Source: Pocillopora damicornis (lineage: Eukaryota). Taken from it: a stretch of DNA of 64,000 nt. The notes beneath the pieces were generated by a model that saw only the letters and a list, made by a program, of their open reading frames with translations, was not told where the DNA came from and ran no database searches. Positions 4,213 through 12,879 of this stretch are shown here, piece by piece. The position numbers were made by a program, and so were the translations under genes. Each line of letters starts with the position of its first letter. Position 1 is the stretch's first letter. The stretch lies in NCBI RefSeq assembly GCF_003704095.1, contig NW_020845558.1, forward strand, positions 806,001 to 870,000. Reading direction: 5' to 3'.

Positions 4213-4584
4213 TTGTTAGCCTCCGTTTTCACTCAAGTAAAGGGCAAGTTGCTAATTCCAGGTGATTTTTCGAAGGACGACGTTACTATCATTCCTCTTG
4301 TATTTTGAAGAATTCTGTGTGGTTAGGTACGTTTCACGAAACTTTGAATGGTTTTAAATCATCCGATAGATTTTCCCCCTTCGAATGTTCGATCGGCCTG
4401 TTGAATCGTTCGAATTTTTTTCATTTTTCCAGACTTGTGCTTCCGGAACGACTGATCAAGCCATCAGTTAGAAGTCTACTGGGTCAGAATAAACAGTATT
4501 TGGAGATTCCCTCCAGCTAAGATCAATTTTTTACTCAGTGTTTCCAACAAAACCGCCAAGATTTCGGACCACGAGGACCTCGAA

Positions 4585-7500
4585 ATGACTAACTCGGCCG
4601 ACGAGGGCAGCGCGACCAAAAGCCCCGTCGACATGGCCAATGATGCCGAAGGAGTATGGTCGCCAGATATCGAGCAGTCCTTTCAGGAGGCTCTGGCAAT
4701 TTACCCTCCTTGTGGGCGGCGAAAAATTATTCTCTCTGATGAAGGCAAAATGTACGGTGAGTGGCGCATTCTTGTCTTCGAATTTGTTTAATTCGTCAAG
4801 CGTCGATTGTTTGAATATTGCTCAACCCGGAAACCTAAACTATGGTCACTAACGAAGTTGCTTGCTCCTTTCGCATAACTCACTTACTTTGAAACTATTT
4901 CTAAAATGAGAAACGGCTGGCTTGTTAAGAATAGAGAGAATGTTGACACTACATACCGCGCTTTCCACGAAGGCATGGAATGGGCAGTCGAGTTGTTTAT
5001 ATCAACTGAACAACGCGATCTCTTGTTGTAATCACTACATATTATTGGCATTCAGCACTCACAGTTTAACACCGATCTCTCGTGGCAGCTGTCCAGCTAG
5101 AGTTCATGAAAATGTTAGCATACTTGTAGGCTTCTTGGCGGTTTTCGCTGAGCAACTAAAAATTCAGCTCCAATGATAAGATGTCACGAACGCTAAGCGT
5201 ACGCAGCTACGCGTGTTCAATTGTTTGAAATATGCTTGCTATGTAACTCGCAGTTTTACATTAACCCCTTACCACAGCGGTTGCATGATCAGTATAACTC
5301 ATCAGTTTTGCTTAATTTGTGTTTTGGAAGACCAACTTGTCAATTTTGTGGGCGATTAAAAGAAGAAGATCATTTTGATCGCCTCAGTTATTTTGTCTCT
5401 CAGAACCGTTGAGATCTCAGGCATAGCATGTGTTTTACATTGCGTTTGTAACAAAGGATCACGAATTATTTTGTTGGAATGCATGTTTAGTTTATTGAGT
5501 GTAAAAGATGGCGAACATTAAATTTTAAAAAACTCAGCTTTTTTCTAACTTTTATGTGTTGTGGAACAAAGACCTCGTCATATTTGTATCTGATTAGTAT
5601 GCCACATGGATAATATTAAGCAACTTGAATAGAATATAATGAAATGCTATGCTGAAAAAAATACGCTACACTGAAACTTAATTTATGAAATGTGCTTTGG
5701 TAATGTCACCCACACTTTTCCTTTTCCTGTAATCTGCATTAAGTCCTTAATGCTTTGTTTCCTTCAAATTCAGTTCAAAATACAGATGAAGTTCATTATA
5801 ATTTTGTATTTTCTTGGCAATATAGTCCTTTCCCCCAGCCACAGTTTAGGCAGTTTTAGTCCTTCATGGGTGATGAAGAAATTTTTGTTCATTGAAAAAA
5901 TATACTTTTCCAATTTTAAAGACCAAGAGTTAAAACAACTGATTTTGTTCTGTTATGTTGAATTTTGAACAAAATTCACACTTTACTTAATTATTATTTT
6001 CATAATTATTGTGCAATTCAAGGAAAGATAATGCCTCTTCAACAAAAGTGTGGGTGGTACAAGTACATGCATACTAAGATCTTACTCTGAAAGTGTTTTG
6101 GCTGATACACCAAGGTAGTAATTTAGAAATCACTGATAATATGAGGAATGGGTGCCAAGTCTCCTAATATACAGCTAACCCTAAAGACTTCTCAAATATT
6201 GATTTAAATTTAAGGCAGTGCGACCACACTAATTTTCCTTTTAATTAAGGATGAGCTAAAGAAACATTGATTGATAATGAGTCTTCCCTATATAATCTAA
6301 ATTAAGCGCCTGTCTTCCTAAATTGTAGAATTCAAGTTAGAGCTCTTTTCTGTTTTTGAATGCAGGCCGTAATGAGTTGATTGCTCGATACATCAAGCTG
6401 AGAACTGGAAAAACAAGAACAAGGAAACAGGTAACTATGTTAAATCTAGGAGTTACAATCAAGATAGTGTTTCGACTCTCAAAGTGGGGAATGAATCTAT
6501 TAATAAGAATATTGACAAATTTCTTAAACTGAAGTTATATTTTTCTCTTTGACTTCAACTTGGCTGGTTCACATCAGTAATAGTAACTTTTCAAAACGTT
6601 TTTCTCCATCAGCCAGTTTTCCTTTTGCATGCACCTGTATCTAGTGATACTGTGAGAAATTCAGAAGAAGGGATACCTCTTGCAGCTTGACTGTTCCATT
6701 TTTTTTTTTGTGGTGCCAATTATGATATTCTTTTTTATGGAAAAAAAAAATTAATGAAAGCTATGATCCCGAAAAAGAGGCTTTTTTTTATCTAGCACCA
6801 GACAAAAGTTCTGATTGGTTCAGGCGGCAATATTTTCAAGCTGGGTGCTTACTGGGTGAAGTTGAGATTTTTCAAATTTTTTTCTTACATAGGTTTCCAG
6901 TCACATTCAAGTGTTAGCAAGGAAAAAGGCAAGGGAGATTCAAGGCAAACTTAAGGTTAGTTACACTGCTTATTTTTTTTTATTTGTGTTTGATAGGTTT
7001 CAAGTCACATTCAGGTGTTAGCAAGGAGAAAACCAAGAGAAGTGCATGCAAAAATTAAGGTTTGTACATAAGTGTATACTGTAGGTGTAAGATTATAACA
7101 CTTAGAGTAACAATTACAAAGAATTACAAGTCAGCAATTACAGTTGTTGAAAACCAAAAGTTGCTTTCGAGCATCCTGTTATAAAGTAACAAAGGACCAG
7201 TTGACCTCAGCACCTGAAGTAGAATAGTACTGTTTGGTTGAAACCTTAGAATCAAAATAAAGTGATTGATTCCGAAGATAAATGGTGTTATTGTATTATT
7301 AGCCATAATAGTATTTCACCATAGGAAATAACCTCAACCTTTCTAAGCTTTTGTATTTCATCTTATCGTTATTGCTTTCCTAATCTCAAACTTTTTTTCA
7401 ATGGTATTTCTAGCTTTCGGAGTTAATTCCAAGATTAATGATTTTTTTATCAATGTCAAATGTAGGACCAGGCTGCGCGAGACAAAGCTCTTCAGACTAT

Positions 7501-10500
7501 GGCTTCAATGTCATCGGCACAAATTGTGTCAGCCTCTGTACTTCACAGCAAGGCTCTGGCGGCAGCTGGAATGCCTGCATTTAACAATGAAAGCCAAGGA
7601 TACCAAGTATGTCCAGTACAATTATAATTAATAGATATCTCAAAACTTTTCACACTACATGTTTCTAAAACTTAACTCTTCAAATTGTATAGTTATCTGT
7701 TGCATGGTCTTTAAGGTCATCAGATAAACCAGCTTAAGTTGAAAATTTTGAATTACTATTTTTTTTCTCAGACTGACCCTTTCGGAAAAGCTAGGTCAAG
7801 ATTTAGTATTTACGAACACTCTGATTAGAGTGCTCTTTGCTCTCTTAAATCAATTAAGGTTACCGGTATTTGGAAGATTGAAAAATTTACTGGGAGTGTT
7901 TTCGGGGAACTGGAAGAGGTCTTTCTGAAATAACTTCATCCTTTTAAATCTTAAAGTAGATTCTTGGGCCATTCCTTTTTCCGGTCAAAATACATGTTTT
8001 TTGTTTATTTTAGCAACAATACTGGCCATCTAGCGCAGGGCAGCCAGTGCCAGGCAGTTATAACAATGCCTCACAAGCTCCATATGGCAGTCCAGGAGTC
8101 CAAGCCAGTGTACCCGGTAGTGTTGTGTCCACAGCTTCAGTTGCAAGCCCCACTGGAGCTGTTGTCAGTACTCCTGAAGACATGGTAAGTTTTCTGTACA
8201 ACGATTTTAACAGGATGGACTGAGATTTAAGGATGTCCGTTGATTGTTGTTTGCCAGGTTGAAGGTAAAACATGAAATTTTTTAAGGGCCGAGTGAGAGC
8301 AAGATGAAGGTTACATCCTATACTATCAACCCTTTACATCCTCACAGCAGTATATGTGTTTTCCATACTTTTATCTGGACATTTCCTATGGTAGTTACAA
8401 AGGGAATTTGTTCAACAATCAGGAGCTTCTTGAGATCATAGTCATTTCCTTTACTCTCATGAATTAAATGTTTGGTTCAGGGGTGTTACTGTCCAGACAA
8501 GTTACATGCTTTTCACCCTGTAAGAGTAGGATAATTTTAGATTCTATTCTTTCATTTTACTTTCTCATTCCATCCAGTACATTAAGAGTGGGATTTGATT
8601 GTCTTTATTTTTTTAATCTTTTTATTATTTTTTTTTTGCAGAGGAGTGTCACACACAGCAGAGGAACTGTATCCTCTACACCACCAACTTTTGCTGCACA
8701 TGGCAGCTCAACATGGCCTCAGAGATCTGTTGAACAGCAGCTAGTAAGTGCACCTATTATTACTGCAGCAGTGTTGTCTAAAGGTCGATTTACACTTTTA
8801 TTATAAGCAATGTTGGCCAATTACTATAAGTATATAATAAATGGTAGATATCCAAATAATAGTCTTAATATTCTTTGCTGTCCACCTCACACCTTCCACC
8901 TTTGCTGTCCACCTCACATCTAAACAGCAGTTTATCACAGTGTTGGTGGCTAGCTTGGTAAATATTCATCACCAAACACCTCCACTTTGGTGAATAGTTA
9001 TTAACTATTACTATTTGGATTTGACTTTCTAGGTCTTTCACATCATTTTTATATTTTGATATTCAAAAGTTGTTATGAAAACCCTTAATAACTAAACATC
9101 ATTATGCACACTTTCCATACTGTTCTCTATACATTCCAACTGGCACTGACCAGGTGAACTCATTCAACAATCAGGAACTGCTTGAGTTGCAGATCATTTC
9201 CTTTATTTTCATGTTCTGAGCATTTGACTCATTAATGATACTGTAAGGGGAATATAGATACTTGTATTAGTCACCAGTGAGAAAAAGAGGGAGAACCTTT
9301 TAGCTCCTCTAACTTTGTGACTTTCATGATTTTAGTTAACTTAATTTCGTTTGATTTTAGCCCCTGCGGCTGGTGGACTTCTCAGCATTTCTCGAACAAC
9401 AGCGAATGGAACCTGAGTCGGTAATTAGAATCTCCACCAGACACATGTTAAGCTATTAATTGCAAATTTAGGATATACACACAGCCCGTAGTGTGTTGCA
9501 TTGGATAGACTGCATTGTCCTTTACAAGTTAACAACTACACATACTTCAAAATCCTAAGTAACTGAAGAAATGTCCAGTAAGCAAGATAATGTGGCAGTG
9601 GAAACAAACAAAACAGCTTTCAAACATTGAAGTTTTGAACAAGTGTCAAGCTTGAATTTTAAACTAAATTCCTCTTCATTCCTTTCCTTTAGTACCACAA
9701 GCATTTGTTTGTTCACTTGGGACCAAACACAGATCTTGGTGACCCTCACCTTGAGGTAAAGCATTTAATTAGAATGCATGGATTGAATAAAATTTTATTG
9801 GTTGTTATTATACTGTGGAATCTCAATTATCCAGACTCATGGGGACTGGGCTGAATAATGTGCATAAATGAAATGGTCCCAAAATAAAACTGAATACATA
9901 TATTAAACCAATGTCAAACAAGAATGAAAGTACACTCTCAAATAACTGTGCATCATTGCCAATACTTGTTAAAGTATTTACAAAATCATTTTACAAGGAC
10001 TACATTTTATGACCTAGAATTCTTACATGTGCACCTTGCTAATTCTTCAATTCTTTGAAGCTGCATTATTGAAATTGTTTCAGTGCATCTACTTGGTTTG
10101 ATGGGAAAGAGTTGTTACAGATCTCATTTGTGAATGATTGACTTTCATGAAAAAATAGGACCAGAGAGGCAAGTCGGGATAATAAAAAAATCTGGATAAT
10201 TGAGATTCCACTGTAGTGGATTGCCAACAATTTCCAACATTATGAACTCTTAATTAGGGCTTGTTTGCACAAAAATATCTGTGGATGTGTGACCAAGCAG
10301 CTTTATCATGCAGTTTGTCTCAGCGGGGCAGTGAAAAAATTTCAACAAGTGGTAACATCGCTATTTTTTTCTTCTTTTGTTGAACTGAAGGCAGTCGACA
10401 TTCGCCAGATTTATGACAAGTTTCCTGAGAAGAAAGGAGGCCTTAAAGAGCTTTATGACAAGGGACCCCAAGCAGTATTTTTCTTGGTGAAATTTTGGGT

Positions 10501-12879
10501 AGGCAGGACTGTCATTATTATTTTTCTGTGTTATGAAGTATGATCCTGATGTTTCTTTGGTTGTTAGTTTTGGTTATAGACACACTTCTTGTTAACCCTC
10601 TAATCCTGAGAGTGACCAGCATGTAATTTCTCTTTACAGTAATACTGCTGAATTATTCTTTAACCCTTTAACTCCTAGATCAAGTTTGTTATTCTCCTTT
10701 CTGTCAACCATACAATTCTTCAGAGAATTTAGTATTGGATCAGCTAATTATCCCCAAATTGATTTTTTTCAATTCTCATCACTAATCTGGTTCACATGTT
10801 ATTGATATAGTAAGGAGAAATTCTGTCTTGGTCACTCATGGGAATTAAAGGGTTATTAAGATCATGAGAATAAACAAAAGGATTACCAACTTGAGAAGCT
10901 TTGATCATAAAATGAATTCTCCTTGTTTGTACCAGGAAAATGTAAGAGAAGAGTATGAAGAATATAGTTACTGATTTTAGGGTGTAAATTAAGGGTTTTT
11001 CTGATTTTCCTTCCTAGGCTGATCTGAATACAAACATACATGATGAAGCTGGAGCATTTTATGGCGTTTCAAGCACGTGAGTGTCTTATTTTTAAATTAC
11101 AGTACAATCATTTTATTGGATAAGTTTTTACACTCACTGAACTACCCATATTACTGTTTCAAATGAAGTTTGGCCATAGATTATTTGGTTTATACTTCAT
11201 TATATGCAAGAAATTGTACATAACCCTGTAAAGTGCCCTAACTCCTTTCCTTAAAATATAACGTGTGTGGGAAATTATTTATAAAAGTAATCCATAGAAA
11301 TCCTTACAAATTTATGGGGATAAATTTACACTGCCACTTGTCACTCAGCCACTTATTTGAACTTGACAGTTAACTAAGGTAAATTGTCACTAATGAAAAG
11401 CCTTTGCTTTTATTCTAGTTATGAGTCAAACGAAAATATGACCATCACATGTTCCACAAAAGTTTGTTCATTTGGCAAGCAAGTTGTGGAGAAAGTGGAG
11501 GTGAGACAAAATGCAAAAGTAATCAATGAAATATCAATCAAAGTCTACTGATCTTGCAAGTTAGAAATTACAATTAGTGGTGAGAATATTGGTGACTGAT
11601 TTAGCCCATTCATGTAGATATTGTGCTGAGTTTCTCTTGGCATTTCAGAGACCCATCATACTAGTAAACAGATATTTTGGACGGCGACCCCATCTTTCCT
11701 CTTTTTTAGTTACATATATGTACTTTGGGTTTAGCAACCAAAATTGAGCTGTGTATACATGTACTTTCTAACATGAATGTGGACTTTTTTTTTCTCCTTT
11801 CTTTCAGACTGAATTTGGCCACTTCGAAAACAGTCGGTTTGTTTACCGCATTCACAGGTCCCCAATGTGCGAATACATGATCAATTTTGTTCACAAACTT
11901 AAACAGTTGCCTGAAAAGTACATGATGAACAGTGTGTTGGAGAACTTCACGATTCTTCAAGTAAGTTAAAGTGTCACAAGGGAACTGATGTCAGTGGGCT
12001 TAAGTGAATATATACTTTGTACAACTTTTCATACCACAACAATGAAATTGTCTGTAGTACCTCTGTAGTGTAAGTTGCAAGATTGTGCTACATTGCATGA
12101 TGTCAATTGTGGCATGTAAGCATTCCACTTTAGTTCTCAGGCTCTTTCCAAGCCAGTACAGTCTTTTTGTATTGTCCAACTTGTTTAGTTGAGTGGACAG
12201 GCTGAGTTTGCAGTTACTGTGGTGAATATGAGGATGCAAATTTGAAACGAAACCAAAACTTTTAACCATTTTGACCCTTAAGATTGCCAAGCATCTATTT
12301 TCTCCTTACATTATTATTCCTGAATCACATAAAGATCATAAGAATAAGGGAAATGATTACTAACTAATAAAGCACCAGGTAATTAATCAAATTCTGCTTG
12401 CTAGAATATGCATACTGATGTTAGGGTGTAAACTCTTTACACCTTAACATCAGTATGCATATTCTCTCTGTTCTCTGCCCATGTCTTGGTTCCGAAAAGG
12501 AGAATTTGTTTAACAATCAAGAGCTTCTTTAGTTGTAGATCATGTCCCATATTCTCATGACCTTAATGTTTTATTCAGGGGTGATCTTGGAAGGAGAAAT
12601 TTCATGCCAGTCACTCTTAGGGATTAAAGGGTAAAGGTAATCAACAAATGGCTGTCAGGATACAGCCCTTATAGCCAACTTGCTAATTTTTTAGACTTGC
12701 TTATAGGGTGTTGGTAAGCTGCTAACAATTCAGCCATATTTAATTTATTTATCATTCATTTGTAGGTATTATCAAACAGGGAGACACAAGAAACCTTACT
12801 CTGCCTTGCCTATGTGTTTGAAGTATCAACTAGCGAACATGGAGCTCAGCATCATATTTACCGACTAGTTAAAGACTAA
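4585..12879 (+). CDS. TEAD: TEAD/scalloped transcription factor (TEA DNA-binding domain + YAP-binding domain), ~450 aa
   Basis: Hand-spliced GT-AG exons with consistent phases: 4585-4756, 6366-6430, [6893-6955 or 6997-7059], 7466-7606, 8014-8184, 8642-8743, 9361-9420, 9693-9755, 10391-10498, 11018-11076, 11419-11500, 11808-11960, 12766-12879. Hallmark TEAD sequences: [103 protein letters not shown] (palmitoylated Cys) and HHIYRLVKD*. Confidence 0.97.
6893..6955 (+). other. TEAD alternative exon 3a ([21 protein letters not shown])
   Basis: 63-nt phase 0/0 exon, preceded by ttcttacatag and followed by gttagt. Confidence 0.9.
6997..7059 (+). other. TEAD alternative exon 3b ([21 protein letters not shown])
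   Basis: 63-nt phase 0/0 paralogue of exon 3a, preceded by a poly-T tract and gatag and followed by gtttgt. The first 10 codons encode identical residues with synonymous changes. Confidence 0.88.
9813..10213. mobile_element. Tc1/mariner-pogo-type MITE in a TEAD intron
   Basis: 23-bp terminal inverted repeats (ctgtggaatctcaattatccaga / tctggataattgagattccactg, 1 mismatch), flanked by TA on both sides; no ORF. Confidence 0.85.
10592..10997. mobile_element. Nested TTAA-type MITEs (inner element ~10660-10855 inside an outer element)
   Basis: The outer element starts ttaaccctc and is interrupted at a TTAA by a related element with ttaacccttta...taaagggtta ends. It then resumes (ttaagatcatgagaat) in register with the other copies in the window. 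Confidence 0.7.
12270..12634. mobile_element. Two back-to-back copies of the ~200-bp TTAA-type MITE
   Basis: Reverse copy ~12270-12432 and forward copy ~12436-12634, both similar to 53675-53886. The junction forms a 30-bp inverted repeat. Confidence 0.75.

Follow-up and report, generated by a model that had tools for sequence, protein, structure and literature searches.

TEAD proteins are the DNA-binding output of Hippo signalling, and tandem copies of one TEAD exon have been described in vertebrates. In human TEAD3 the same 21-codon exon as in the coral gene described here, with the same protein boundaries, is present in tandem copies of which one replaces the other. The pair is listed in the supplement to PMC8373072 as a tandem duplicated exon substitution (event 210, dated Vertebrata) without any invertebrate ancestor, and TEAD1 is absent from that supplement, where TEAD3 is the only family member. 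The human TEAD3 spacer is 189 nt long compared with 41 nt in the coral, and models that include both copies are common in vertebrates. A similar pair in vertebrate TEAD1 had been mentioned in an earlier note on this DNA, which was correct for TEAD1 (exons 4 and 5, at the same place) and holds for TEAD3 as well. The upstream TEAD1 copy has KK at positions 11-12 like coral exon A, and the downstream copy has RK, plus His17 in jawed vertebrates, like coral exon B. In fish TEAD1 the spacer is 90 nt and in frame, against 41 nt in the coral. The available part of a study of mouse Tead1 (bioRxiv 10.64898/2026.04.17.719138) treats the 63-nt exon 4 as a cassette, with a 'full length' form that includes both exons. 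Since the vertebrate copies are often included together, they do not form the same strict switch as the coral pair.

Steric mutually exclusive exons, as set out in the accessible part of PMC5740500 (57 human clusters; a donor-to-branch distance <50 nt is the steric criterion), are likewise homologous exons with a donor-to-branch distance below the limit and no joining of the two seen. The coral case differs from this class in having an intron of 41 nt in all, in showing that intron trapped in RNA, and in a GC donor inside exon A that may provide a bypass. TEAD4-S, which the available part of PMC5867882 attributes to skipping of exon 3, is a splice-made TEAD with one of the two domains, as is the retained coral reading frame described below; TEAD4-S lacks the DNA-binding domain, whereas the coral frame, a predicted protein, keeps it and lacks the YAP-binding domain. 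The main texts of PMC9741552, PMC5740500 and PMC7954323 gave no match to TEAD, and neither did the supplements to PMC9741552 and PMC5740500, sets that may be incomplete; no TEAD exon duplication is described in the available parts of PMC9410899, PMC5867882, PMC3620549, PMC9947421 and PMC13644364. A full-text search, judged by title and start of abstract, gave no match for an invertebrate TEAD exon pair; subscription papers, including older work on TEF-1 isoforms, lie outside its coverage. Both coral isoforms are already in RefSeq as automatic models without a name. The mechanism class is already known, and what is added here is a coral example, a spacer that stays trapped, and a broad distribution of the pair.

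The window, which is the whole 64,000-nt stretch of DNA that was analysed, carries a 13-exon TEAD gene, and its host is a stony coral of Pocillopora type. A protein named from Pocillopora (P0131) is 100% identical to the first five coding exons, exon A included. Two exons match the TEA domain (PF01285) above the Pfam cut-off, and the homologs are named TEF-1-like. The YAP-binding domain (PF17725) is covered by the mapping of P0131 onto exons of the window up to 12876 and is present in close homologs, and its predicted fold matches TEAD YAP-binding domain structures with an E value of about 1e-32. Exon boundaries past 8743 are approximate. The features of the locus are as follows.

4585-4757, plus strand: TEAD coding exon 1, with the start codon and the first part of the TEA domain (Pfam TEA match; tblastn and exact mapping of P0131; RNA joint to 6367).
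6367-6430, plus strand: constitutive upstream exon, with the middle of the TEA domain and the N-terminal basic pair of the NLS (RNA joints to exon A in 7/7 runs and to exon B in 1/7).
6893-6955, plus strand: exon A, 63 nt, phase 0, with helix 3 and the C-terminal basic cluster (from sequence; present in all spliced runs).
6929-6930, plus strand: internal GC donor-like site in exon A after codon 12 (AAG/GCAAGG; 6/7 consensus positions; breaks in RefSeq models).
6956-6996, plus strand: 41-nt spacer with GT..AG ends, a U-rich tract and a candidate branch A 17 nt from the donor (retained; excision not seen).
6997-7059, plus strand: exon B, 63 nt, phase 0, the second copy, with 6 residue changes in codons 11-20 (from sequence and RNA joints).
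7019-7021, plus strand: premature stop met on spacer retention (translation of the retained frame).
7466-7606, plus strand: constitutive downstream exon (RNA joints from A and from B).
8014-12879, plus strand: remaining TEAD exons, with the linker and YAP-binding domain (tblastn of P0131; fold matching TEAD YAP-binding domain structures).

The two 63-nt phase-0 exons, their translations, their intact splice ends and the 41-nt spacer at 6956-6996 were all as the earlier note had given them. Both exons have AG/GT ends, and they are identical at 50 of 63 nt. Codons 1-10 differ by 2 synonymous changes and no residue change, and codons 11-21 by 6 residue changes (K11R, A13P, I16V, Q17H, G18A and L20I). 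In being adjacent, homologous and of equal length and phase, they resemble tandem duplicated exon substitutions and mutually exclusive homologous exons. A third copy was absent from positions 4400-12500 of the window, where nothing scored above 15, compared with 99-103 for A and B. An assembly duplication or artefact was rejected, because the stretch containing the pair has a single match in the genome and one contig of X15, an unspliced, DNA-like run, spans 6300-7700 with 1 difference; X15 may be the source of the window. At 7023, within exon B, an A>G difference that is synonymous (Ala9) was observed in 4 runs.

The earlier note had read selection from the synonymous changes. Within the window this signal is weak, the 2 changes giving p=0.054, and the stronger comparison is that across species, in which both copies are conserved. 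A metagenome locus from a related coral, L011, differs from the window in each exon by 4 synonymous and 0 replacement changes (p=0.002 each), for a total of 8 and 0 over both; its flanks have diverged from the window and its spacer is 34 nt. The exon A peptide is identical in models from Porites, Acropora, Oculina and Stylophora. That of exon B is identical in Stylophora, Oculina and L011, and is kept with few changes across six stony-coral genera; the B-specific residues R11, P13, H17 and I20 are kept in Pocillopora and in Acropora/Montipora, with A almost unchanged. Pro13 is found in five stony-coral genera and in L011, and Porites has Ser. Both single-exon isoforms were present in 8/8 hexacoral genera with several listed models (Porites, Pocillopora, Stylophora, Oculina, Acropora, Montipora, Actinia and Nematostella), although the anemone second copy is unlike stony-coral B. 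The second copy is thus present and intact in relatives, a point on which the earlier note had staked its reading, and both copies are under purifying selection. Both isoforms were found in 0/2 octocoral genera and not in Rhopilema, as judged from isoform lists, not genomes. The possibility that B is a dead second copy was rejected, as it is spliced in RNA, under purifying selection and kept across genera. The coral exon pair is real, conserved and expressed. One anthozoan-type locus (L010, 2506-2688) has an anemone-like pair in the reverse of the order implied for Actinia, with a 57-nt spacer and Met5 in both copies, which suggests either conversion or a separate duplication.

Eight of 18 listed RNA runs were examined, and 7 of these, from 6 studies, were spliced; all of the data are assembled contigs. 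Joint positions were reported 2 nt leftward and fit GT..AG at the coordinates given here. The joints from the upstream exon to A (6430>6893) and from A to the downstream exon (6955>7466) were present in all 7 spliced runs, and that from B to the downstream exon (7059>7466) in 4 (X1, X5, X8 and X12). The joint from the upstream exon to B (6430>6997) was found in one, X8, at a depth of 223 and with 23 letters on its short side. Each exon is therefore joined to both flanking constitutive exons, for upstream to B in 1/7 runs, and both exons are expressed. All four of these joints had been predicted in the earlier note, as had the absence of one from A to B (6955>6997), which was seen in 0/7 spliced runs; since assembled contigs drop rare paths, a rare joint of this kind could exist. 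A joint skipping both exons was likewise seen in 0/7 spliced runs, again as assembled contigs. The further claim that only one exon is used per transcript is not supported in that form: an A-to-B joint is lacking in 7 spliced runs, but A and B also occur together in transcripts that retain the spacer, and in some RefSeq gene models codons 1-12 of A run on into B. The exclusivity of A and B is not strict.

Retention of the spacer was shown directly in one run and inferred from bin depth in two. In X5 an unbroken contig covers 6927-7060 at a depth of 72.7, compared with 3.1 and 7.8 for contigs of neighbouring introns, and the retained-spacer depth is at least about 25 once words shared with B are corrected for. 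Bin depth in X12 agrees with retention (27.8 predicted and 27.7 observed, against 21.7 without it), and bin depths in X1 favour it. Contig depth is a poor measure of level, and retention is therefore claimed as presence and not as a share. The retained spacer shifts the frame to the stop at 7019-7021, leaving a 121-aa frame with the TEA domain and without the YAP-binding domain. P0003, which comes from a relative and is spliced upstream, continues from A into its own spacer in the same way. The retained-spacer depth is high for a decay target in X1, where the lower bound is about 150 against about 270 for the A-to-downstream joint; in X12 it is only 2-4 times the intron background.

Both outer introns had been removed and the inner one left, as the steric model predicts, which points to the inner intron itself. 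The entire intron being 41 nt, its donor-to-branch distance is under about 50 nt; from the donor of exon A to the candidate branch A the distance is 17 nt, and the actual branch point could fall within exon A. Other introns of the coral gene are about 270 nt or longer, with approximate boundaries. According to the accessible part of PMC6157073 short introns in Nematostella and Acropora have a modal length close to the 86 nt of vertebrates, and the available part of PMC13644364 reports that reduced animal parasites can splice introns under 30 nt. Vertebrate loci with spacers of 90-189 nt have models that include both exons, which fits a role for spacer length. The 41-nt spacer is likely too short for removal, so that one copy would be used per working message. 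Because this spacer is below the usual intron size, the A and B proteins can be compared in the coral without the vertebrate double-exon form, making the locus a clean test case in which the trapped spacer is a measurable read-out of the steric model.

The GC site at 6929 would yield a 68-nt, in-frame intron to exon B. Five RefSeq models (P0133, P0135, P0140, P0141 and P0158), from Stylophora, two Pocillopora species and Actinia (three genera), join A codons 1-12 to the second copy; these are automatic models. The corresponding joint from inside exon A (6928>6997) was seen in 0/7 spliced runs, in contigs that can miss it. Rhopilema isoform X2, Lineus isoform X3 and a Hydractinia model also leave the helix-3 exon at codon 12. 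Judged by its sequence, the internal GC donor is the likely route to the A(1-12)-B models. Two predictions from outside RefSeq, P0138 and P0183, join the whole of A to all or part of B and were taken as prediction errors because they have no read support.

We consider it probable that the TEAD helix-3/NLS exon has been duplicated in tandem and conserved, that each copy is spliced, and that the 41-nt intron is likely too short to be removed, with full-length TEAD predicted to contain A or B. Where the acceptor of A and the donor of B are both used, the spacer would be trapped and the frame shifted to the stop at 7019, and the stop-bearing RNA would either decay or give a TEA-only protein. The weak GC donor inside A may allow a 68-nt escape, giving a minor product that stays in frame and has part of the helix doubled. 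Exon B might instead be chiefly a regulatory 'poison' exon whose selection leaves the spacer trapped, reducing TEAD output or yielding a decoy that only binds DNA, the B protein being secondary. Retention was seen or inferred in 3/7 runs and the upstream-to-B joint in 1/7, spacer read-through meets a stop in the window and in 5/7 translated paired loci (L005, L010, L011, L017 and L023), and P0003 shows the same product in a relative; read-through is open in two fish TEAD1 loci. However, such a role would not need a B peptide under purifying selection and little changed across six stony-coral genera; most of those genera have annotated B-only models, and the upstream-to-B joint reaches a depth of 223 in X8. 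We regard this explanation as unlikely.

Slightly less likely again is that A and B are near-equivalent spare copies, both used, whose isoforms have no difference that matters. The changes, mostly conservative, spare the first 10 residues, the helix is the same in the two predicted structures, and many animals appear to have a single copy, but the retention of R11, P13, H17 and I20 in both Pocillopora and Acropora/Montipora fits a distinct constraint on B. Because runs differ in their use of B, the choice is probably under some regulation, and this would suit an exclusivity that came from RNA structure or splicing factors and not from spacer length. The predicted fold of 6840-7120 is no better than shuffles (z 0.48), though, and retention with both outer introns gone implicates the inner intron, which makes this last source of exclusivity very improbable.

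The base-reading Ser and Gln of helix 3 fall within the identical first 10 residues, and position 13 corresponds to human TEAD1 Ser102, a reported PKA site. Basic positions of the NLS have been defined for Scalloped (PMC3121794, in its available part), and these are basic in both A and B. Since the first 10 residues and the four basic NLS positions are preserved, the two isoforms probably recognise a common DNA motif, with differences likely in affinity, in modification or in the contacts made with partners at the C-terminal extension of the helix; as the base-reading residues lie in the identical part, tuning is expected and not a new motif. The earlier note had proposed that the Pro in B would break the helix extension. 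This was not seen with AlphaFold2, in which helix 77-113 is continuous in both forms with no break at Pro92. The models are weak (mean pLDDT for residues 91-100 of 62 for A and 52 for B; 59-62 overall) and the alignment was mostly non-proline, so the proline break is rejected softly.

Beyond the cnidarians, two variants are listed in 3/3 hemichordates, in the echinoderms Apostichopus, Holothuria, Acanthaster, Patiria, Asterias, Diadema and Antedon, in lamprey, and in jawed-vertebrate TEAD1 and TEAD3. The remaining mollusc, nemertean and spider lists, and those of most protostomes, gave one variant, these being isoform lists and not genomes. Among metagenome loci the pair was found in 10/26 and one copy in 16/26 within the sequence covered, many of the 16 being short or redundant; a genomic single copy between both flanking exons was seen only in L008/L027/L029, in L014/L016, and jointly in L009 with L022. 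Spacers measured 105 nt in L005, 90 nt in L007 and L020, 137 nt in L023 and 189 nt in human TEAD3. In 119 new vertebrate matches both exons were joined in 23 and the spacer was read through in 7, counts that give no frequency because the search ranks double-exon models high. The 90-nt spacer of vertebrate TEAD1 (L007 443-532) keeps the frame, contains no stop and has a similar sequence in animals from teleosts to a viper; it is read through in several models (P0241, P0242, P0252, P0253 and P0266). In two spider TEAD models (P0366 and P0370) the next exon downstream appears doubled. The clam Mercenaria (P0471 and P0473) has two variants with clam-specific residues common to both, and its pair is likely a separate duplication.

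Given the pair in hexacorals, hemichordates, echinoderms and a clam, the switch is either older than bilaterians or the outcome of at least three or four independent duplications of one exon, and either answer would be of interest to the field of splicing evolution. The exon tree has 21 columns and cannot separate one ancient origin from repeated origins: 2/41 inner branches were strongly supported, and 0/6 constrained trees were rejected (p-AU 0.13-0.53). Grouping coral B with vertebrate B cost 0.3 log units and grouping all hexacoral copies 17.7, neither significant. One shared origin is favoured by the match between stony corals and vertebrates in which exon is doubled and in the order of its copies, with KK upstream and RK downstream, by a strongly supported branch that joins coral A, the anemone copies, sponge-type exons and the vertebrate upstream copies, and by the apparent ease of loss, one copy being present in the fish-type locus L013. 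Repeated independent duplications would account for the clam-specific residues in both clam copies, the reversed order in L010, and the single-copy-like member being downstream in vertebrates and first in corals and ambulacrarians; K/R swaps are cheap, and the available part of PMC9741552 reports frequent convergence for this exon class. Shared His17 was dropped as proof of homology with TEAD1 and is probably convergent, because the downstream copies of lamprey and TEAD3 have Gln17. On balance a single shared origin seems to us somewhat doubtful. We offer tentatively, as a fuller version, one duplication before the cnidarian-bilaterian split, with the order kept in stony corals and in vertebrate TEAD1 and TEAD3 and the pair often lost elsewhere, and with the pair tied in corals to a spacer that cannot be spliced out and that also adjusts the dose of TEAD by way of a third, trapped product carrying a stop. 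If true, the pair would be among the oldest alternative-splicing switches in the recognition helix of a transcription factor.

Two further observations were made. A spliced antisense transcript on the minus strand runs from GT donors at 5061 and 4955, in TEAD intron 1, to an acceptor at about 2756. Its joints pass over TEAD coding exon 1, and its contigs were present in all 4 runs inspected for it; no long reading frame was seen in this region, which is likely a non-coding exon or a UTR exon of a head-to-head neighbour. Another TEA gene, without introns and encoding 292 aa that gave no match to the YAP-binding domain, was found at L001 838-1716 on the minus strand (G000:C352). It has several relatives of similar length (P0486, P0488, P0490, P0491 and P0493), and it may represent a conserved retro-copy family and a permanently DNA-binding-only TEAD.
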